Source: Bdellovibrionota bacterium FG-1 (GTDB lineage: Bacteria > Bdellovibrionota > UBA1018). From it: a stretch of DNA of 64,000 bases. The stretch is taken from assembly GCA_051382295.1 (NCBI GenBank), contig JBBCAW010000031.1, forward strand, positions 27,710-91,709, in the 5' to 3' direction. The position numbers and the translations under genes were made by a program. Under the pieces are notes generated by a model. The model ran no database searches. It was not told the origin of the DNA and saw nothing but the letters and a program-made list of their open reading frames with translations. Positions within the stretch are counted from its first letter, which is position 1. Each line of letters opens with the position of its first letter. Shown piece after piece: positions 1 through 10,029 of this stretch.

Positions 1-786
1 TAAACTGGCCCACGCCGGAAACACCTGCGCGAGAACAATTCGAGCGAACCCAGGCGTGATCGAGTCGTGGGTTCCCCATCCTAAAAAAGGAAAAGGCTGC
101 AATTGCACCATCGCACCCAGAAAAACGAACGAAGCCCCCATAAAGTCAGTGGTTTCACTCCAAGAAGACGCGCCGACCATACTCAGTGGCGCTCTCGCTC
201 CCGCTAAAACACATAGCCCCACCAACGACAGGATAAAACCCCAAGAACGCTCCCATCCGAAACGGGTGGCAAGCGCGGCCTCTGATGAAAGACCCCAATA
301 CGACCCCAAAGCTAAAAATCCGCCGACAATGGTCAATACCGACCCCGCCAAGGCCAACCACGGCGTAAGCCCAAACCAGGCAAACGCCACCCCCGCGCAC
401 GAAACCGCTAGCGCCGCATACAACCGCGCCGCTCGAGTGACACGAACCGTTCCGCTGGTCACAAGAAGCAAACAAGCCGAAACCAAAACCGTCAAAACGG
501 CTACCGCCAACCCCACCGCATCACGGACCATACCAACGGTAATGGCTCCCTCTTCAGCCCGAGGCCAAATCCAACCCCTCAGCCAGGTTTGCGGCTGAAA
601 AGAATCTTCGCTGAGTGCGATCCATCCTATTCCCGCATCGATCATAAGGGCCGCCAGACCCAAACCAACCAACCAATCCCCTTGACGCGGCAGCTTACGC
701 CCCCAGAGCATCAAGACAATTCCACCCACCAGCAAAACCACCAACCCTGACAACAACAGTGCAGGAGAAGACGTAACGCCGTTCAT
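1..786 (-). CDS. nuoL: NuoL/MrpA-like antiporter-fold membrane subunit, N-terminal part (runs off window), highly divergent
   Basis: Not in the ORF track. Hand translation from ATG at 786 (ATGA overlap with nuoK stop) is open to the window edge for 262 codons. It is very hydrophobic, and GAMVQLQPFPFLGW aligns with NuoL GAVGKSAQLPLQTW. It sits directly after nuoK. Confidence 0.75.
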   Translation of the reverse strand, partial: MNGVTSSPALLLSGLVVLLVGGIVLMLWGRKLPRQGDWLVGLGLAALMIDAGIGWIALSEDSFQPQTWLRGWIWPRAEEGAITVGMVRDAVGLAVAVLTVLVSACLLLVTSGTVRVTRAARLYAALAVSCAGVAFAWFGLTPWLALAGSVLTIVGGFLALGSYWGLSSEAALATRFGWERSWGFILSLVGLCVLAGARAPLSMVGASSWSETTDFMGASFVFLGAMVQLQPFPFLGWGTHDSITPGFARIVLAQVFPAWASL

Positions 787-1073
787 TGCTTGAGTGACCT
801 CAATTCGTCGATATTTGTGCGGGTTTTTAGATAAAAAACACGGATAGCCAGCGCGTAGCCACCCGCCAACTGGGCAACGCCGGAAAGAACAATAAAGAGC
901 CCAAAAAGGTGGCCCTCAACCCGCGCGCCCGACATCACGCCCGCAAGGACAAACATCATTGCCGAACCCAAAACCAAAAGCTGAATGCCGATCATAATGC
1001 CCAACAAGGTTCGCCGAGAAATTATGCAAACCAGACCAAGAGCACCCATCATCCCGGAGACAAGCATCATCAT
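783..1073 (-). CDS. nuoK: Complex I-like subunit K (divergent)
   Basis: 96 aa with three hydrophobic segments, SRRTLLGIMIGIQLL and C-terminal TNIDELRSLK pattern; operon position. Confidence 0.85.
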   Translation of the reverse strand: MMMLVSGMMGALGLVCIISRRTLLGIMIGIQLLVLGSAMMFVLAGVMSGARVEGHLFGLFIVLSGVAQLAGGYALAIRVFYLKTRTNIDELRSLKQ

Positions 1074-1585
1074 GGCTGTGACTCCTTTTTTGAACTTTGC
1101 TCTGGGCGAGCAATCACGCCACCGCCAATCAAAACGAGAAAGAGTGTCAGCGCCAAAACCTCTAACGAAAGCAAATGCTGGCTGGTCATTGTTTTTCCGA
1201 GCGCCGCCACATCGGTGCCGTCAACCGCTAGGCCAATTCCGTTTTCCGGAATTTGCCCCGCTCCAAACCAAATCACGGTCGAAAAAGCGAACCCCAAAAG
1301 TACCGCCATCACCGTTTTAAATATTCGAGATCCCCCCGTCTTCTCCCAGTCGCTCGAGCCATATTCGCCAAACATCACCGAGAAGAAGACAAAAGAAATA
1401 ACCACTAAAGTCGAAACAATCCATTGAATGACGGCAAGAAGCTCCGCTCCAAGCGTGAGGTACAAGGCGCCCACTCCGAGGCCGGCAATCCACAACGAAA
1501 GGATTGCTCGTCGAATATCCCCAACAAAAGCGGCAAAAGCACCCGCCCCGAGGGTGATTACCGCAAAGATCCAACAAATCGTCAC
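1070..1585 (-). CDS. nuoJ: Complex I-like subunit J (divergent)
   Basis: Five TM segments, LYLTLGAELLAVIQWIV and HLLSLEVLALTLFLVLIGG motifs; probable GTG start overlapping nuoI stop (GTGA). Confidence 0.85.
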   Translation of the reverse strand: MTICWIFAVITLGAGAFAAFVGDIRRAILSLWIAGLGVGALYLTLGAELLAVIQWIVSTLVVISFVFFSVMFGEYGSSDWEKTGGSRIFKTVMAVLLGFAFSTVIWFGAGQIPENGIGLAVDGTDVAALGKTMTSQHLLSLEVLALTLFLVLIGGGVIARPEQSSKKESQP

Positions 1586-2118
1586 AACAGCCCCCCTTCG
1601 CCGTCTTCCGTTGCGCGTCTCATTTTTGCCCAATGCGCCCGCTGTGGCTCAGTAATATGGCCACGCCCAAAATGACTCACCATCGCAGACAACCGATAAA
1701 CGGCGCCCTCATATTGCCGGGTATGCATAAGCGACTGTGGCTGACAAGCCTCAACACAAAGGCCACAAAAAATACACTTCGAAAAATCGATATCAAACGT
1801 GGACACCCAAACTTTAGCCGAATCCGCTCCAGGCTCTGTTTCGACCGAAAGGCAGTCCGTGGGACAAACGATTTCACACTCTTTACACCCGGTGCATCGC
1901 TCTATGTCATTATAAAGAAGCCCTCTTGACCGGGAAGGAAGGTCCTCGGGTGCCCGGGATGAAATGGGATCCGGGTACTGCTCTGTCACCTCTTTTCGAA
2001 ATTCGCCAGCGCTCAACAAATACGGGATCGAGGTCAAACACGATCCAATGACCGACCGGGCCCCCCACAAGGCATCTCGAAAATAGTGTCGAAGTGTTGA
2101 AAAAACCGATTCAATCAC
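1582..2118 (-). CDS. nuoI: Complex I-like subunit I, 2x[4Fe-4S]
   Basis: VTEQYPD, CTGCKECEIVCP and CIFCGLCVEAC ferredoxin motifs; GTG start overlapping nuoH stop. Confidence 0.9.
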   Translation of the reverse strand: MIESVFSTLRHYFRDALWGARSVIGSCLTSIPYLLSAGEFRKEVTEQYPDPISSRAPEDLPSRSRGLLYNDIERCTGCKECEIVCPTDCLSVETEPGADSAKVWVSTFDIDFSKCIFCGLCVEACQPQSLMHTRQYEGAVYRLSAMVSHFGRGHITEPQRAHWAKMRRATEDGEGGLL

Positions 2119-3200
2119 AGCGCCCTCCATCCCGCCCAAAAGCCCACGCCAATCAGCGCAGCGAGCGAAAAAGGACTCAGGACCTTCCACGCAAAATCGG
2201 TGACCTGGTCCGTCCGCGTCCGAGGGTTAACTCGAGCGACCCAAACCACAAGAAGCATTAATAGAAAGGTCTTGATCAATAAAACGACCAATTCCAAAAA
2301 CTGCAAAACACCAAAAGCTTCGGCATCCTTGAGCGCGCTAAAAAGACTAACTGGAAGCTGCCAGCCCCCCAAAAACAAGACGACCGAAATCACCGACCAC
2401 AAAAAGAAACCATAGAACCGACTCAAGTTAAATAACGTCAGCCTTTTTCCATGCAAATAGGAAGAAACACCGCCTTGAATATCTGGATGCGAAAGCGCGG
2501 CATCCATCGGAGGAATCGCCAAAAGAATGAGTCCAGCAACAACAAACACGACCATCGCGATCAACTCGAACGGATTGGTCGTAGCCGCCCAAGTAAACGG
2601 AGAGGCCCCCTGAGAACCCGCCAAAACACTCCACTTAAAGCTCCCGGCTCTAACCCCAGCGCAAAGTAACGCCACCAACGCCGGAAAGGCTCCTGCCAAA
2701 GCCTGCGCGGCTACCCGTACGCCGCCCAACCACCCTGGCACCGAACCTTGGCTGAAGCCTAAAAGCATCGTACCTAAAGCCAAAACAAGCGCCGCCCAAA
2801 ACGGCCAAAAGGCACTCATATCCGTATCCACTAACAACACGAGGGACCCCAGCGGCAATACGGCAACCGTTGAAAAAAGGGCCATGGTATGAACGCCCAC
2901 CCAAAGAGCTTCGCGCCAGGTCCACGCTTGGTTGCCCTCTTTTTGGAGAAGCTTAAGCAGATCAGCAAGCGGTTGGAGCGCCCCGGCCGGCCCAGCCCGA
3001 TTCGGGCCCACTCGGGCTTGAAAATCAGCGCCCAACTTGCGATCCAGAAAAGCCATCACGGTGGCACTAGGAAAAATGACCAAGAGATAGATGAAGACTA
3101 GGCCACAGCCCGCAATCAACCATTGAGGGACTCCGGGCGGAAGTCGCAATAGATGCGCCCAAATGGTTGGCCAATTCATGTCCGTGCCCAATGCGTTCAT
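2115..3200 (-). CDS. nuoH: Complex I-like subunit H (divergent)
   Basis: DRKLGADFQARVGPNRAGPAGALQPLADLLKLLQKE, LFLGGW and PRTRTDQVTDFAWK motifs. Confidence 0.9.
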   Translation of the reverse strand: MNALGTDMNWPTIWAHLLRLPPGVPQWLIAGCGLVFIYLLVIFPSATVMAFLDRKLGADFQARVGPNRAGPAGALQPLADLLKLLQKEGNQAWTWREALWVGVHTMALFSTVAVLPLGSLVLLVDTDMSAFWPFWAALVLALGTMLLGFSQGSVPGWLGGVRVAAQALAGAFPALVALLCAGVRAGSFKWSVLAGSQGASPFTWAATTNPFELIAMVVFVVAGLILLAIPPMDAALSHPDIQGGVSSYLHGKRLTLFNLSRFYGFFLWSVISVVLFLGGWQLPVSLFSALKDAEAFGVLQFLELVVLLIKTFLLMLLVVWVARVNPRTRTDQVTDFAWKVLSPFSLAALIGVGFWAGWRAL

Positions 3201-4330
3201 CGATCCGCCTCCGCAACGCCAAGATCTAGGCTTGCCAGCAATACCGGCAGGTCTTCAATCCGAATCCCGGGCAACAAAGAAGGAACCATCAACAAATGGG
3301 CCGAAGATGGCGTCCTAAACTGCACTCTCGCCGGTCGGGCACTACCATCGGAAACCACATGACAACCGAGCAGGCCTCGCGAACTCTCGATTCGTGAGTA
3401 ACCCTCACCTTCGGGCACGGCAAAGTCTCTATCGATCCTTCCGATAGCAAATTCGCCGGGCGGAATTTTTTCAGCCGCTTGCCGCAGAATCACCACGCTC
3501 TGAGCGATTTCACGAAGATGAACCAAAAAGCGGGTGTGCGCCCCGCTGCCCGATGCTTGACTTTCGACCGGCACTTCAAAATCCCATTTTGAATATCCAC
3601 TATAAGGATGCGCCCGGCGGATATCCATTCCCACGCCTGAGGCGCGTGCGCTAGGGCCGGTGACCCCCCACTTGGAAATTTGCTCGGGAGACAAAACACC
3701 CACCTTCATCGTTCGCAACAAAAAGGCGTGATTATAAGTAAAAAGATCATTGTATTCTTTCAGGCGAACCTGGGCCAGATCACAAACCTCCAACACTCTC
3801 TCAATAAAACCTTCGGTCACATCCGCCCTCACGCCACCGAATCTCAAAAAATTCAGCGAAAACCGCGCGCCTGACAAAAGCTCAAACAAATCCAATACCC
3901 GCTCACGATCCCGCAAAACATAATGAAGCATGGTCTCGGCACCTACAGCTCGAGCCATTTGAACCATAAAGCCCATATGTGAGGAAATTCGAGTAAGCTC
4001 GGACAAAATCACGCGAATCACTTGTGCTCGTTCAGGCACTTCGATTTCAGATATCTCTTCGACCGCCAGACAAAGCGCTAATTCACCAAAAGCCGCCCCT
4101 TCGGGATCCAAATGATCAGCATAGGGAATCGACGCCTGCCAACTATGGCGTTCAAAAGCTTTTTCGAGTCCGCGGTGCAAATACCCACAGCCCACCGTAC
4201 CCGAAACGACAATCTCGCCATCAAGCTGAAGACTCAGCTTGATGGGTCCCGGCAGAGCACCGTGATAGGGCCCGATTTCCCAGAGCGTCAGGTCTGTAAC
4301 AAGACATTCGGCTTCAGGGCTTTGATTCAT
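3197..4330 (-). CDS. nuoD: Complex I-like subunit D (49 kDa family, divergent; no NiFe CxxC)
   Basis: GYLHRGLEK, ELTRISSH, GVTGPSARASG, ESSRG motifs and C-terminal ASLDLGVAEADR. Confidence 0.9.
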   Translation of the reverse strand: MNQSPEAECLVTDLTLWEIGPYHGALPGPIKLSLQLDGEIVVSGTVGCGYLHRGLEKAFERHSWQASIPYADHLDPEGAAFGELALCLAVEEISEIEVPERAQVIRVILSELTRISSHMGFMVQMARAVGAETMLHYVLRDRERVLDLFELLSGARFSLNFLRFGGVRADVTEGFIERVLEVCDLAQVRLKEYNDLFTYNHAFLLRTMKVGVLSPEQISKWGVTGPSARASGVGMDIRRAHPYSGYSKWDFEVPVESQASGSGAHTRFLVHLREIAQSVVILRQAAEKIPPGEFAIGRIDRDFAVPEGEGYSRIESSRGLLGCHVVSDGSARPARVQFRTPSSAHLLMVPSLLPGIRIEDLPVLLASLDLGVAEADR

Positions 4331-4823
4331 GAGAAATCCCTAAATATTCCGGTGGAAAAACATATTTTTTACGCAAAGGAAAACCCACCCACCCCTGTGG
4401 AAGGCGCTGGCTTGGCAAATACACGGGCTGTCCGCTAGCGGACAAAAACCTAATCCCAAAAAGTTCGCCGGCCTCAACCTCAAAGGCGCCGGCCATCGCC
4501 CAGAGCTCGGCCACTGAAAAAAGTTCAGCCGGGACGGTCGGACCAGGCGGCACCGCTGAAACCCGCAAGGTCACAGTCAAGGCGCTGCTCGTTGAACGTA
4601 GAAAATAGGAGGCAACCAGTGTTTCTTCGACTTCGATCACGGAGAGATTTTCAAGCCAATCTAGAGCCACCCTGTTTTCATTTTTAAGAAATGCTGCCAC
4701 CGCCACCAGTAGGCGCCCCTCAATCCAAAAAGAGGGCGAAGTGGTGCGCCCGAAACACCCGTTTTCAAGCACGGCCCCAGGAACTGCTTGTTTAAGCTTT
4801 TTGAGAAGTTCGGTCGTGTCCAC
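4314..4823 (-). CDS. nuoC: Complex I-like subunit C
   Basis: FEVEAGELFGIRF and WVGFPLRKKY motifs; start uncertain (GTG 4823 chosen). Confidence 0.85.
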   Translation of the reverse strand: MDTTELLKKLKQAVPGAVLENGCFGRTTSPSFWIEGRLLVAVAAFLKNENRVALDWLENLSVIEVEETLVASYFLRSTSSALTVTLRVSAVPPGPTVPAELFSVAELWAMAGAFEVEAGELFGIRFLSASGQPVYLPSQRLPQGWVGFPLRKKYVFPPEYLGISHESKP

Positions 4824-5277
4824 GGATTTTTTCCTGTAAGGCGATAAGCCCATTCATGATGGCTTCAGGCCGCGGGGGACACCCTGGCACATAGACATCC
4901 ACTGGTAAAAGACGATCGACCCCGGGCATGACAGAATAACTGAACTCCGGTGCGAAAGGACCGCCACAGTTCGCGCACGAACCGATCGCAAGAACATATT
5001 TCGGTGCAAGCATCGAATCATAGACCGCGCGCAACGGAATGGCGGCCTGATACGAAACCACTCCAGACACAATGAGTAAATCCGCTTGCCGGGGATCTGC
5101 CTGCGGAAGGCAGCCAAACCGCTCAAGATCGTAACGACAGCCCATCGTATTTAAAACCTCGTCTGCACAACACCCAGAGCCCGTGGAAATGTACCAAAGC
5201 GAGTTGGCGCGAGCCCATTGAAGAACTTTTCCAATCGTCGAAACATAAAATGAGGGTTTTTCCGTCGCTGGGCTCAC
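4792..5277 (-). CDS. nuoB: Complex I-like subunit B (N2 cluster)
   Basis: GCCADE tandem Cys, PRQADLLIVSG, GSCA and VYVPGCPPRPE motifs. Confidence 0.92.
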   Translation of the reverse strand: MSPATEKPSFYVSTIGKVLQWARANSLWYISTGSGCCADEVLNTMGCRYDLERFGCLPQADPRQADLLIVSGVVSYQAAIPLRAVYDSMLAPKYVLAIGSCANCGGPFAPEFSYSVMPGVDRLLPVDVYVPGCPPRPEAIMNGLIALQEKIRGHDRTSQKA

Positions 5278-5678
5278 GTTTTTTTATTTTCTCCTTTTTC
5301 CTCACGAAAACTCGTCAGCCAACTCAGATCCCCTTTGCGAACCGAGTAAAGAAGACCCAGGGCTGCAAAACCCGCGATTGACACGATCGCGACCAAGCCG
5401 CGCAATAGCCCTTCGTGATCCGTTCCGGGCTGCAATATCCCCACACAGGGAACCAAAGCCAACATGAGTGCGATCAAAACCAGTGCTGCATTTGCGGCGA
5501 GAAAAAATCGGGCATTTATTTTCTGACCCAAGACCGTTCGATTCGCTTCTACGGCTTCAGTCTTCGCACCGTTTTTGGGCGAAACCAAATAGGAAACCAA
5601 AGCTAAAGCGGCAGGAATGCCGAGAGCTAGGAATGCAGACAAAAAAACGATGTAGTAGACATCCCAGCCGCTGGGCAT
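5274..5678 (-). CDS. nuoA: Complex I-like subunit A (divergent)
   Basis: Three TM segments, ARFFLAA and GLLYSVRKGDLSW motifs; first gene of operon. Confidence 0.8.
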   Translation of the reverse strand: MPSGWDVYYIVFLSAFLALGIPAALALVSYLVSPKNGAKTEAVEANRTVLGQKINARFFLAANAALVLIALMLALVPCVGILQPGTDHEGLLRGLVAIVSIAGFAALGLLYSVRKGDLSWLTSFREEKGENKKT

Positions 5679-5697
5679 TGCGCCTTACCTCGCGAAA

Positions 5698-5726
5698 AGA
5701 CTACGCAAGTCGAAATGGAGTGTCAA
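5698..5726 (-). promoter_or_regulatory. Sigma70-type promoter of the nuo-like operon
   Basis: Minus strand TTGACA-17 bp-TAGTCT, ~20 bp upstream of nuoA ATG; GAGGT SD present. Confidence 0.65.
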
Positions 5727-5743
5727 GGTCGGTGATTCGATTT

Positions 5744-6481
5744 ATGCTGAACACAACCATGCTTTTTAATCCGACTGGCGGCTTGATCTACCATTTGCGT
5801 GCGCTCCGATACCGCAACGCCCTTTGGCATGAGTTTCGGAACGCCCTCCACCCCTGGCTCGCTCAATGGGCACCTTCTGAGCGCGCTCTTCTGTTGATAG
5901 GCCCGAGTGGTGGTTATTGCTTACCCCCCTCTTTTTTGGCCCGCTTTAAGCAAATCAGCGCCGTAGATCCTGACCCCTGGGCCCCTATCATCTTTCATCG
6001 ACGCTTTAGACGCAACGCACAGTGGATTCGCCAAGATTATTTTTCACCCGTCCGGGGGGTTTTTGATCCTTCCCGCTTTGAGATATTAATGTCCAAACAT
6101 CCTCACCATGCGGTTTTGTTTTGTAATTTTCTCGGGCAACTCCCGTTGTTAAACACCGCTGCGGCTACCCAACCTTCTTTTTCAAAATGGAAAGCGGCCC
6201 TTCCATCGCTTTTGGAGGGCCGCTCGTGGGCAACCTTTCATGACCGTTTGTCCGGGGAGCTTCGACCAACGCTTGCGACGAATTCCCCGCTCTGTCGCTA
6301 TGAAGACTGCGTCGCGGATTCACGCCTTCTTGCGGATTTTTACAAGGCCCCCGCCGAAGATCGGCAAATTGAGCTTTCCGATCACTTGACCGGAGACCTT
6401 TTCCCCGGGCACCCTCGTCATTTTTTTCGCTGGCAACTGACCCCTGGAAACTGGCATTTAATCGAAGGAATTCAAAAATGA
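5744..6481 (+). CDS. Hypothetical protein, possible SAM-dependent methyltransferase-like fold
   Basis: ORF with likely ATG at 5744 or 5759; LLLIGPSGGY...ISAVDPD Rossmann-like pattern; ATGA-coupled to mfd. Confidence 0.6.
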   Translation: MLNTTMLFNPTGGLIYHLRALRYRNALWHEFRNALHPWLAQWAPSERALLLIGPSGGYCLPPSFLARFKQISAVDPDPWAPIIFHRRFRRNAQWIRQDYFSPVRGVFDPSRFEILMSKHPHHAVLFCNFLGQLPLLNTAAATQPSFSKWKAALPSLLEGRSWATFHDRLSGELRPTLATNSPLCRYEDCVADSRLLADFYKAPAEDRQIELSDHLTGDLFPGHPRHFFRWQLTPGNWHLIEGIQK

Positions 6482-9400
6482 CCCCCCCGAGCCGGATCGA
6501 AAACATGATCCGTTCTCTCATTCAACTCGACGCACCGATCCACGTTACCGGATCTATCGGCCCCTCTCACGCTTGGCTAGTGGCACGATACGCCCGCGAA
6601 ATCCCTCATCCCCTAGTCGTTATTTGCCCCAATGATGATTTAGCGGCCGAGTTCGCTGCCGACATTGAATCACTCTCGGCTCTCGTTGAACGGGCACCTC
6701 TTTTAGTCTGCCATTTTCCGACGTGGGAGCAATCGCCCTATAGCCCTATTGCCCCATCGCTTCGAACCCGACTTGCTCGGATCGCCGTTCTTCAGTCTCT
6801 TCGTTCTGAGGACCCCGCCGAGCGACCTCGGGTGGTAGTGACCACCATCGCTGCGCTCGGTCAAGCATCACTCTCGCCTGAGTTTTTTGCTCGATATTGC
6901 ATCACCCTCCAGAAAGACCAAAGTATTGAGAGCCGCGAAGCCGTGATTTCACGCCTCATCGAAGCCGGATATCTGCGTGTCGACACGGTGGAAGACCCGG
7001 GCACTTTTGCCGTGCGTGGCGATATCGTAGATGTTTTTCCAGCTCATCATGAGCACCCGGTCCGAATCGAATTGTTTGGGGATTTCATCGAAAAGATTCG
7101 AAAATTCGACCCAGCCAGCCAACGTGCGAAAACAGGGGAGATTTCATCTCTTTCCTTTTCTCCCGCGCGCGAAATATTGATCAACCACGAGACGACCCCG
7201 CTCATTCGTGAACAAGTCAAGGTCCGCGCCGATGATATGGGCATGCCTCGCGCCTCGCGTGACCCCATTTTGGCAGGAGTGCAACCCGGTCACTACCCCG
7301 ATCATTGTGACGCCTGGGCTCCTTTTGCTTATCCCCGTCCAGCCTGCCTGTGGGACCACCTTTCTCCTGACACTCAGGTCATTTGGAATGACGAACTGAC
7401 CTGTCAGCAATATTGGGATGAATTTTTTAAAGAACAAATACGCCTGTCTGCGGCCTCACCCCAAAGCCGCGTCGTCGCGCCCGCGGCCGAACAGCTTTTT
7501 ACCTGGTCACACGGATTGGATGAACGCGTTCACAAGAGTTCTCGCCTTTTTTTGGACCGTCTTGAAATGGCCGACCTTCCAACTATCGGAGAACTTGACG
7601 AGCTCGCCATCACTTCCGAGCCAAAACAAAGCCCGGTTTCGCCACGTCATCGCGTCGCGGTTCGAAACAACAGCGATCTTTCTTCAAAGGGTAAAAACGC
7701 CCTTGGGGCGCTCGATCCCAGCCTGAAGCTTTGGCAAAAACAGGGGTTCAAAACGCTCATTCTTGCCTCGACTCAAAGCCAGTTAGAACGGATCCGCTTT
7801 TTATTAGAAGAACGCCATTTTGTTTGTCGACTAGAGCCCGAACTCCAGCCGTCCGCCATTCACCTGGCCATTGGCTCTCTCTCGCAAGGCTTTCGTTGGC
7901 CCGCCGAAGGACTAGTGGTCCTGACCGAGAGCGAAATTTTAGGAACCCGCTCGACGAAAAAACGACGCCAGCAGTCGACCACCGAAAGCGGCTCTGCCGC
8001 CAAAAATTGGTCGGGCCTGCAAGCTCTTTCGGACCTCGCGGTAGGTGATGCTATCGTACACGTCGACCACGGAATCGGTCGTTACCTGGGTTTGGTTCGC
8101 CTCGATCTGAGCGGAGCTCCTAGCGATTTTTTACTCTTAGAGTACGCCAGTAAGGACAAGCTCTACCTTCCTATCTACCGCCTCAACGTCATCCAAAAAT
8201 ATGTCGGCGCCGGAGAAAGCGTGGCTTTAGATCGACTGGGTACCCAACAATTTACCAAAGCCAAAGAAAAAGTCCGCGAGGCGGTCAAACGTTTGGCGGT
8301 TGACCTCATTAAACTGTACGCCGAGCGCAAGGTCAGGCCTGGCCTACGTTTTTCGCCCCGAGATTCCTTATTTCGCGAGTTTGAAGCCTCTTTTCCTTTT
8401 GACGAGACTCCCGATCAACTCAAAGCAATTGATGACGTCATGGCCGATTTAGAGGCCGGAAAGGTTTCAGACCGTTTGGTTTGTGGTGATGTGGGCTATG
8501 GTAAAACCGAAGTGGCCATTCGGGCGGCCTTTAAGGCGGTCAGCGATGGGAAACAGGTTGCCGTTCTCGTGCCCACCACGGTTCTGGCCTTTCAACATGA
8601 GCAGTCTTTCAAGTCTCGCCTTAAAGATTATCCCATCCTCGTCGAATCCATTTCGCGCTTTAAGACGGCAAAAGAACAGAAGACCCTTTTGACGGCTCTG
8701 GCGGAAGGAAAAATCGACATTATCATTGGTACCCATCGCCTCCTTTCAAAAGACGTCCGCTTCAAAGATCTCGGCTTGATTATCGTGGACGAAGAACACC
8801 GTTTTGGCGTCGAACATAAGGAAAAACTCAAATCCCTCAAAATCGACACGCACGTTCTCACGCTAACGGCCACGCCCATTCCCAGGACTCTCCATATGGC
8901 GCTATCTGGGTTACGCGACATCAGCCTCATCAACACCCCTCCGGTCGACCGCCTCCCCATTCGAACCTATGTCTCGAAGTTTGATGAGGACCTGATCACC
9001 CGCGCGATTCACTTTGAATTGAGCCGCGGCGGACAGGTTTTCTTTTTGCACAATCGGGTGGATTCGATCTACCCTATGGCCAGCCGAATCCGCGAGCTCG
9101 TACCCACGGCACGCGTAGGCGTCGGCCACGGCCAGATGGCAGAAGGCGAACTGGAAGACACCATGGTCGCTTTTTACGAAAAGCGGACCAACGTCCTCGT
9201 TTGTACCACCATCATTGAATCCGGCATTGACCTGCCAGACGCCAACACGATGATCATTAATCGTGCCGACACCTTGGGTCTAGCCCAGCTTTATCAGATC
9301 CGTGGCCGCGTGGGCCGCAGCCAGCAAAGAGCCTACGCTTATTTGCTCATCCCCGCCGAAAACGCCGTCACCGAGGACGCAAAAAAACGACTTGAGGTGA

Positions 9401-10029
9401 TCCAGCGCTTCGTGGAACTCGGAAGTGGTTTTTCAATTGCCTCCCATGATCTCGAGCTCCGGGGCGGCGGCGATCTTCTAGGTCCCCAACAATCGGGCCA
9501 TATTGCAACGGTGGGATTTGATTTATATACCGAGCTGCTCGAGGAGGCAATTCGGGAACTGGAGGGCCAGCCTTCCCACACGCCGGACCAGAGACGTGAG
9601 CCCGAAATCAAAGCGCCCTTTCCGGCCTACCTTTCAGACAGCTACGTTCCCGATGTCCATCAACGTCTTTCGCTCTACCGGCGATTTTCGACGGCCGAAA
9701 ACGAGGACCAGCTCAACGGGCTAGAAGAAGAGCTCCGGGACCGTTTTGGCGCTCTTCCCCCTGAGGCTCAGAACCTCATGTGGTTAATCCGGATAAAAAT
9801 CCTTCTCAAACAAAATGGCATCGACACCTTAACCGTAGGCCCAGAGCGCGTATCGCTCGTTTCTGGTCCCCATAGCCGCCTCGATCCCGTTCGAGCAATC
9901 GCGTTGATTTCGGCCCATCGTGATCAATATCAGCTCACTCCTGACTCCAAATTTGTCGCCAAAGTTCCGACGGCCTCACTTCGAGATCTCTTTTTCGCCC
10001 TCGAACGTTTGTTTCGGGAACTTTCCTGA
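6478..10029 (+). CDS. mfd: Transcription-repair coupling factor
   Basis: 1183 aa; CarD-like VHVDHGIGRY, GDVGYGKTE, DEEHRFG, QIRGRVGR motifs; TRCF C-terminus. Confidence 0.98.
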   Translation: MTPPSRIENMIRSLIQLDAPIHVTGSIGPSHAWLVARYAREIPHPLVVICPNDDLAAEFAADIESLSALVERAPLLVCHFPTWEQSPYSPIAPSLRTRLARIAVLQSLRSEDPAERPRVVVTTIAALGQASLSPEFFARYCITLQKDQSIESREAVISRLIEAGYLRVDTVEDPGTFAVRGDIVDVFPAHHEHPVRIELFGDFIEKIRKFDPASQRAKTGEISSLSFSPAREILINHETTPLIREQVKVRADDMGMPRASRDPILAGVQPGHYPDHCDAWAPFAYPRPACLWDHLSPDTQVIWNDELTCQQYWDEFFKEQIRLSAASPQSRVVAPAAEQLFTWSHGLDERVHKSSRLFLDRLEMADLPTIGELDELAITSEPKQSPVSPRHRVAVRNNSDLSSKGKNALGALDPSLKLWQKQGFKTLILASTQSQLERIRFLLEERHFVCRLEPELQPSAIHLAIGSLSQGFRWPAEGLVVLTESEILGTRSTKKRRQQSTTESGSAAKNWSGLQALSDLAVGDAIVHVDHGIGRYLGLVRLDLSGAPSDFLLLEYASKDKLYLPIYRLNVIQKYVGAGESVALDRLGTQQFTKAKEKVREAVKRLAVDLIKLYAERKVRPGLRFSPRDSLFREFEASFPFDETPDQLKAIDDVMADLEAGKVSDRLVCGDVGYGKTEVAIRAAFKAVSDGKQVAVLVPTTVLAFQHEQSFKSRLKDYPILVESISRFKTAKEQKTLLTALAEGKIDIIIGTHRLLSKDVRFKDLGLIIVDEEHRFGVEHKEKLKSLKIDTHVLTLTATPIPRTLHMALSGLRDISLINTPPVDRLPIRTYVSKFDEDLITRAIHFELSRGGQVFFLHNRVDSIYPMASRIRELVPTARVGVGHGQMAEGELEDTMVAFYEKRTNVLVCTTIIESGIDLPDANTMIINRADTLGLAQLYQIRGRVGRSQQRAYAYLLIPAENAVTEDAKKRLEVIQRFVELGSGFSIASHDLELRGGGDLLGPQQSGHIATVGFDLYTELLEEAIRELEGQPSHTPDQRREPEIKAPFPAYLSDSYVPDVHQRLSLYRRFSTAENEDQLNGLEEELRDRFGALPPEAQNLMWLIRIKILLKQNGIDTLTVGPERVSLVSGPHSRLDPVRAIALISAHRDQYQLTPDSKFVAKVPTASLRDLFFALERLFRELS

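Follow-up and report, generated by a model that had tools for sequence, protein, structure and literature searches.

Homologues of complex I are assumed to be energy-conserving, and the archaeal Fpo and the Mbx/MBS complexes conserve energy with charged membrane arms. In the available portion of PMC4758237, Fpo is described as carrying Tyr87 without His38 and Asp139 at its acceptor site and as still reducing methanophenazine. An 11-subunit complex I is treated in the accessible part of PMC3144371 (Moparthi and Hagerhall 2011), and tandem operons for 11 and 14 subunits in MBNT15 appear in that of PMC9386147. Here we analyse a window of 64,000 nucleotides (nt) from Bdellovibrionota bacterium FG-1 (GTDB lineage Bacteria; Bdellovibrionota; UBA1018; contig JBBCAW010000031.1, positions 27,710 to 91,709 of the forward strand), at one edge of which lies a degenerate nuo operon whose products lack residues of the quinone site and of the proton path. 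In combination, the residue losses, the selection acting on the genes and their near class-wide retention indicate that this operon very probably encodes a selected, non-pumping pseudo-complex I.

With the 14-subunit canonical complex I, known as Nuo in E. coli and as Nqo in T. thermophilus, the degenerate copy shares the order of its 11 subunits, the NuoD and NuoL folds and the ligands of the iron–sulfur (Fe–S) clusters N2, N6a and N6b, whereas it is without nuoEFG, the quinone triad, the E-channel and nearly all central-axis charges. The intact 11-subunit complex I, in the form found in other Bdellovibrionota and in Deferrimicrobiota/MBNT15 (PMC9386147, available part), is the one from which the degenerate copy directly descends; it has the same mfd-flanked locus and short NuoD, and there the checked key residues are kept, nearly all of which the degenerate copy has lost. 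Basal degenerate members have an altered acceptor site resembling that of Fpo, with Tyr87 in the absence of His38 and Asp139 (13/13 sequences), whereas the crown copies, unlike Fpo, are also without Tyr87, the window having Pro at this position. In an alignment of 36 NuoD sequences, the R-x-D-Y and the C-terminal D-x-x-x-x-E-x-D-R positions carry no Cys of the group 4 [NiFe] hydrogenase/MBS type. The available text of PMC3144371 and PMC2330069 covers intact 11-subunit and back-to-back clusters only, and a literature search, mostly without subscription papers, returned no description of this degenerate clade.

Results

The subunits were aligned with orthologues and paralogues, using E. coli K-12 Nuo as reference throughout and additionally T. 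thermophilus Nqo4 (2fug_4) for NuoD. NuoCD numbering is that of the 596-amino-acid (aa) E. coli protein. The functions of NuoD His38, Tyr87 and Asp139, of NuoK E36 and E72 and of the sites in transmembrane helices (TM) 5, 7, 8 and 12 are given in the available parts of PMC4758237 and PMC10212512. Residue counts cover 72 loci; open reading frames (ORFs) scoring below 25 bits were dropped, which removed most membrane subunits of family f10. The quinone triad of NuoD, present in 59/59 canonical copies, is retained in the degenerate ones in 0/67 (His38, H224), 13/67 (Tyr87, Y273) and 0/69 cases (Asp139, D325). Along the proton path, NuoA D79 and E81 are both kept in 0/46 copies (canonical D79, 63/63), NuoK E36 and E72 each in 0/53 (canonical 19/19 and 17/18, respectively), with Gln in place of E36 in 38 of the 53, NuoJ Y59 in 0/59 (canonical 44/45) and NuoH E157 in 0/65 (canonical 54/54), E241 of the same subunit having become Arg in 42/65. 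The antiporter-like subunits follow the same trend: NuoL retains E144 in 0/55, K229 in 0/53 and K399 in 1/56 copies; NuoM retains E144 in 2/59, K234 in 2/57 (Arg in 52/57) and E407 in 3/57; and NuoN retains E133 in 4/56 and K217 in 2/56, only K395 being common (37/56). In the canonical counterparts within these genomes, the positions in subunits D, A, H, J, K and L are almost always intact; few canonical NuoM and NuoN rows entered the count, and the intact controls for these two subunits come from separate alignments. An alignment artefact is ruled out, as the same alignments recover the residues in the canonical copies and the pairwise comparison with 2fug_4 agrees.

The preliminary description of this DNA, made by eye from the sequence, had listed missing residues in NuoA, D, H, J, K and L. 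Every substitution that it named holds in the alignments with E. coli and T. thermophilus (Table 1), which confirm the losses instead of restoring Glu, Lys, His or Tyr. Its picture of loss throughout the subunits is too sweeping in one respect, since the degenerate copy retains NuoH R37, R46, D63 and D213, an Asp at NuoH E220, NuoD His34, a His at NuoD R270, and NuoN K395. At NuoD 73-77 (window 4105-4114) the crown copies have fixed H/R-L-D-P-E instead of R-L-D-Y, with Glu77 in ~80%, and this motif may take up the space of the old quinone pocket or change its charge.

The Fe–S ligands, said in the same description to be kept in full, are indeed in place: the window has all four NuoB cysteines and both CxxCxxCxxxC motifs of NuoI. 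Among the degenerate copies the NuoB ligands are found in 61/63 (C63), 62/63 (C64), 64/64 (C129) and 63/64 (C158) cases, only some of the exceptions having been inspected, and both NuoI motifs in 71/72. Residues on the N2 side are nearly as constant, with Arg, His or Lys at NuoD R270 in 66/67, NuoB D77 in 63/63, NuoH R46 in 63/64 and NuoH D63 in 60/64. NuoI furthermore carries a conserved insertion specific to the degenerate clade, and the window NuoD is without a ~24-residue segment of the 14-subunit-type protein, a segment typical of NuoG-bearing complexes that we take to serve in docking. In the degenerate NuoB of G008 (L023) the tandem Cys pair, present in every other aligned copy, is replaced by C-G-C.

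According to the structure predictions the degenerate complex still folds, and it probably assembles. The NuoD model has a predicted local distance difference test score (pLDDT) of 92.7 and a template-modelling score of 0.93 to E. coli NuoCD. The NuoL-like protein gave no Pfam or NCBIfam match and owes its identity to its fold: its AlphaFold model (pLDDT 87.8) includes the long lateral helix (residues 554-629) and reaches a template-modelling score of ~0.7 to NuoL/NdhF, and the C-terminus is among the best-conserved regions of NuoL. A joint model of NuoB, NuoD and NuoI scored 0.90 versus 0.60 for the best control, with at least 88% shared contacts and partner pLDDT of at least 76. The pass mark applied is reached by 116/157 solved pairs and 2/215 mismatched pairs; since solved complex I structures exist, this pass may reflect likeness only.

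The degenerate NuoI profile matched 115/127 genomes of the class, including 72/75 of good quality. The three good genomes without a match are G043, which has a second NuoB, G058 and G060; in the latter two and in the less complete G292, all of one genus, mfd lies directly beside an intact canonical nuoA, i.e. the operon has been cleanly deleted. Among 251 genomes of the phylum the best 40 matches were all class members, and the 13 next-best matches from other classes that were inspected belong to intact stand-alone nuoBCDI-type clusters. The ratio of nonsynonymous to synonymous substitution rates (dN/dS) was calculated according to Nei and Gojobori on the least saturated of 19 pairs, many pairs being saturated. 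Purifying selection was detected on all 10 subunits tested, L, M and N included (NuoC was left out). For G010/G310 the ratio is 0.02-0.16 over the 10 subunits and 0.04-0.08 for the canonical genes, for G064/G065 it is 0.00-0.10 over 8 subunits, and for the f10 pair G033/G053 it is 0.01-0.04 for B, D and I, the six reduced membrane ORFs giving 0.02-0.14; the family truncates L and M to ~300-330 residues. Most unsaturated values lie below 0.2, the highest being 0.55 for a distant f10 pair. Among the closest relatives, NuoM (59-65% identity) and NuoD (60-66%) are conserved to the same degree. The operon evolves faster than its canonical counterpart in several lineages. In-frame breaks occur in G036 NuoI, G035 NuoD and G007 NuoL; comparable breaks are found in canonical genes of G005, and those in the degenerate copies may thus be assembly errors. 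Broken frames and a dN/dS near 1, the marks of a pseudogene cluster, are not the pattern seen here: frames are open, orthologues are intact nearly class-wide and the ratio is far below 1, so that decay is not indicated.

The origin of the operon was examined in a concatenated NuoH+M+N tree (41 rows, IQ-TREE fast mode, rooted on E. coli, support from the Shimodaira–Hasegawa-like approximate likelihood ratio test, SH-aLRT, only). Here the degenerate arm groups with the upstream intact arms of G189, G184 and G105 (SH-aLRT 99.7), followed by L069/L075 (92.7); the canonical arm and the C4 copy are placed in other parts of the tree. The C4 copy is a third, intact 11-subunit operon (L003:6550-19534) directly behind genes for 2-oxoacid:ferredoxin oxidoreductase. 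A NuoD tree built by a quick method joins the degenerate copies, which sit on long branches, into one clade; it leaves the sister group unresolved and contains long-branch joins. Recent duplication of the canonical operon or of the C4 copy is ruled out by identities of only 15-41% to the neighbouring canonical paralogues and 16-43% to the C4 copy, together with the separate tree positions. In G189, G184 and G105, which belong to other classes, two membrane-arm operons stand in tandem, with nuoBCDI and NuoD-containing clusters elsewhere in the genome, and the checked key residues are intact except for a few positions in the downstream NuoN. The mfd gene lies upstream of the nuo locus class-wide and in G189, G105 and G123, a nuoAHJKLMN cluster at a common site across the phylum is reported in the available part of PMC13147790, and L069, like MBNT15, carries tandem 11- and 14-subunit operons. 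Judged from sequence, the degenerate operon descends from an 11-subunit complex that is still intact at this locus in other Bdellovibrionota. Other members of the phylum (L138-L152, L158-L160, L163-L164) have two complexes I, both intact, with membrane-arm operons in tandem and a stand-alone nuoBCDI, and in family f21 a ~320-aa ORF with a weak DUF6782 match often precedes the stand-alone nuoBCDI. The record L062, titled candidate division WWE3, has the tandem nuo locus described here and falls within the class in both trees; the title looks mislabelled.

The loss proceeded in stages. In the basal families f2, f7, f13 and f14 Tyr87 is kept and His38 and Asp139 are gone, and the least eroded copy, that of G101, keeps NuoM E144, K265 and E407, NuoN E133 and NuoH E228 and E241. 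In this copy Arg takes the place of the TM7 Lys in all three antiporter-like subunits, and the charges of NuoA, NuoK and NuoL are already gone, as are the NuoD His and Asp. The crown then lost Tyr87 (54/54 sequences, Pro in 45) and the NuoM and NuoN charges, and f10 shortened its arm. The earlier proposal of a coordinated loss in a repurposed rather than decaying complex is supported, with qualifications. Since the residues stayed lost on proper alignment, dN/dS did not approach 1 and no characterised clade of this kind emerged from the literature searched, "repurposed, not neutrally decaying" stands; the loss was staged and not simultaneous.

Upstream of the degenerate operon, the motif TTGAC(A/T)-17-TA..T is present in 34/53 relatives, against an expected 0.004 per 650 nt. 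The window promoter had initially been called near-consensus, but its -10 box TAGTCT matches the consensus at only 3/6 positions, and because of this weak box the site is not listed by a consensus scan. Spacer and flanks (window 5698-5740 and relatives) are unusually conserved between genera, which suggests that a regulator binds here or that the contact with sigma is extended. Degenerate nuoN and canonical nuoA are adjacent in 49/49 loci with both genes, the median gap being 38 nt (60 nt or less in 34), and in only 1/55 cases do the 400 nt preceding canonical nuoA contain a sigma-70-like site. The promoter at 5698..5726 probably drives both operons, and we infer that the degenerate and canonical genes are co-transcribed from it.

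Discussion

According to the available part of PMC10212512, no published coupling model pumps protons without the E-channel and the central axis. Both are absent here, and the loss of pumping is therefore near certain as far as the sequences tell. A complete loss of electron transfer is less certain, considering that Fpo reduces methanophenazine without His38 and Asp139; conversely, NuoB and NuoI may need their clusters to fold, so that invariant Fe–S ligands are no proof of electron transfer. Annotation would count the operon as a second NADH dehydrogenase across a whole bacterial class, and retention long after the loss of quinone chemistry and pumping implies that the scaffold of complex I serves some function other than catalysis; no such function was found described in the literature searched. 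The clade moreover offers a natural coupling series, from intact orthologues through intermediates that kept the NuoM and NuoN charges and Tyr87 after the losses in NuoA, K and L, to stripped forms and deletions. The Glu-to-Gln and Lys-to-Arg replacements that have become fixed are like those of loss-of-function mutants made in the laboratory, and they point to sites that need sealing against proton leak.

We tentatively propose, at somewhat less than an even chance, that the degenerate complex is a partner of the working complex I, either structurally or as a regulator. Redox chemistry would first have become uncoupled from pumping, and selection would then have sealed the proton path with shape-preserving, non-titratable replacements (Glu to Gln, Lys to Arg or Gln) and so avoided a leak. 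What selection preserves would be the shape and the surfaces of the complex, needed in its partnership with the co-expressed functional enzyme, and its Fe–S clusters would serve folding and perhaps redox sensing. A partner is favoured over an electron valve, a relic or a transporter because L, M and N are under strong selection, the position is fixed and the promoter is probably shared. A bare valve would not need L, M and N; the replacements are specific, many of them fixed and isosteric; the membrane arms of G189, G184 and G105 stay in tandem even though the B-C-D-I genes of these genomes lie elsewhere; and the NuoD segment typical of NuoG-bearing complexes is missing, with no obvious donor co-occurring. 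Several observations weigh on the other side. The tandem order is inherited (PMC9386147, available part, and the H+M+N tree), so the genes may be neighbours for historical reasons; some lineages show relaxed selection (G085/G090, 0.08-0.47 against 0.05-0.12 for the canonical genes); and B, D and I are the most recognisable subunits where the f10 membrane arm shrank, which suits a redox role better. The deletions in G058, G060 and G292 and the single arm of G123 further indicate that canonical complex I can do without the degenerate copy. A more specific version, in which the proton-sealed twin made from the complex I transcript docks onto the enzyme in a fixed hetero-supercomplex and, via its Fe–S chain, regulates or organises it, the ancestral tandem intact complexes already having formed such a pair, is speculative and rather doubtful.

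It is possible, if rather unlikely, that the complex is instead an uncoupled electron valve that passes electrons from a ferredoxin- or flavodoxin-type donor through N6a, N6b and N2 to quinone or another acceptor without pumping, the arm being an anchor. The near invariance of the NuoB and NuoI ligands, the retained R270, NuoB D77 and NuoH R46 and D63, the clade-specific NuoI insertion and the Fpo pattern of the basal families (PMC4758237, available part) all fit such a valve, which would nevertheless have to operate without Tyr87 throughout the crown and would leave the strong selection on L, M and N unexplained. Nor does a donor co-occur: 2-oxoacid:ferredoxin oxidoreductase is present in only 17/75 good genomes versus 72/75 for the degenerate operon, leaving a link to ferredoxin-producing catabolism unsupported, and a search for donor genes beside intact nuoBCDI clusters gave only weak DUF6782 matches, in 2/5 proteins. 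The operon does not stand in for NDH-2 either, as the latter occurs in 38/75 genomes, both among the keepers and in one loser, with no complementary pattern. In nine genomes of the order (among them G000 (C4), G002, G003, G006, G013, G018, G036 and G083) a match to the oxidoreductase and an additional NuoD match are a few kb apart, which suggests that a separate, intact complex takes on the ferredoxin-linked task; this proximity was taken from coordinates, and only the G000 copy was read.

An entrenched relic, decaying slowly and without positive function while selection removes only misfolding, leaky or assembly-poisoning variants, appears unlikely. The staged erosion, long branches, faster evolution than the canonical paralogue, f10 shrinkage, clean deletion in three genomes and in-frame breaks in G036, G035 and G007 would all be expected of it. 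However, clean deletion is viable and frees ~10 kb, yet 72/75 good genomes keep the operon, dN/dS matches that of the canonical genes in some pairs such as G010/G310, and similar breaks occur in canonical G005 genes. Least of all do we expect a repurposed transporter or channel, in which the arm would carry a different ion or solute under the control of the Fe–S module; this is very unlikely. The antiporter-like fold is retained and some polar residues persist or have become fixed anew (NuoM R234, NuoN K395 with Lys or Arg in 48/56, and NuoH R241, while NuoM often has Glu at H322 and His at E407), but the Glu of TM5 survives only in 0/55 (L), 2/59 (M) and 4/56 (N) copies, the new polar residues differ between lineages, and f10 cuts L and M to ~300-330 residues. 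The partner role thus remains our preferred account of the operon.

Operon features and neighbouring genes

The window contains nine open minus-strand frames in the order A-B-C-D-H-I-J-K-L, spanning 1-5678 (Table 1). Pfam assigns a family to 8/9 of them, that of NuoA by a match below the cut-off only. The frames had previously been described as intact with overlapping start and stop codons, and both features are visible at the junctions. Past the truncated nuoL at the window edge, where the preliminary description had asked how the operon goes on and whether a canonical nuo set exists, it continues as L-M-N, giving a complete operon of 11 subunits in canonical order, A-B-C-D-H-I-J-K-L-M-N. A canonical 14-gene nuoABCDEFGHIJKLMN operon, the only one of the two with nuoEFG, then starts 32 nt past the degenerate nuoN stop codon.

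Table 1 Features of the degenerate operon and its surroundings
Feature	Position in window	Strand	Basis and remarks
Promoter, TTGACA-17 nt-TAGTCT	5698..5726	-	Sequence; motif shared by relatives
NuoA-like; D79/E81 to I69/L71; TM1-2 loop degenerate	5274..5678	-	Pfam below cut-off, alignment
NuoB; N2 ligands C36, C37, C101, C133 kept	4792..5277	-	Pfam, alignment
NuoC-like	4314..4823	-	GTG start at 4823 inferred; longest ORF from 4853
NuoD-like; H38, Y87, D139 (2fug_4) to P27, P76, A128	3197..4330	-	Alignment, fold
NuoH-like; E157, E216, E218, E228, E241 to A, L, H, Y, R; R37, R46, D63, D213 kept	2115..3200	-	
NuoI; both 4Fe-4S motifs kept	1582..2118	-	GTG start at 2118 inferred; longest ORF from 2190
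NuoJ-like; Y59 to S74	1070..1585	-	GTG start at 1585 inferred; longest ORF from 1633
NuoK-like; E36/E72 to Q31/Q68	783..1073	-	Pfam, alignment
NuoL-like, first 262/655 residues; all axis charges lost (E144/K229 to V150/Q228)	1..786	-	Alignment, fold
Rest of NuoL	beyond window edge, to L001:12819		
NuoM-like	beyond window edge, L001:11284-12807		
NuoN-like	beyond window edge, L001:9789-11276		
mfd	6478..10029	+	TIGR00580; divergent upstream neighbour, synteny marker outside the complex

Between the promoter and mfd, an ORF of ~248 aa (window 5735-6481, plus strand) has no Pfam match and no homologue in the fetched loci. The C4 operon has a small ferredoxin-like ORF after nuoN, and its NuoM carries Leu at K234. 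On C50 (L005:6186-13488) there is a group 4 hydrogenase-like cluster with a large subunit without the CxxC motif, possibly an Ehr-type complex. The canonical NuoG downstream of the degenerate operon (L001:3842-5251) is only 469 aa long versus 908 in E. coli, and comparable lengths are found class-wide.

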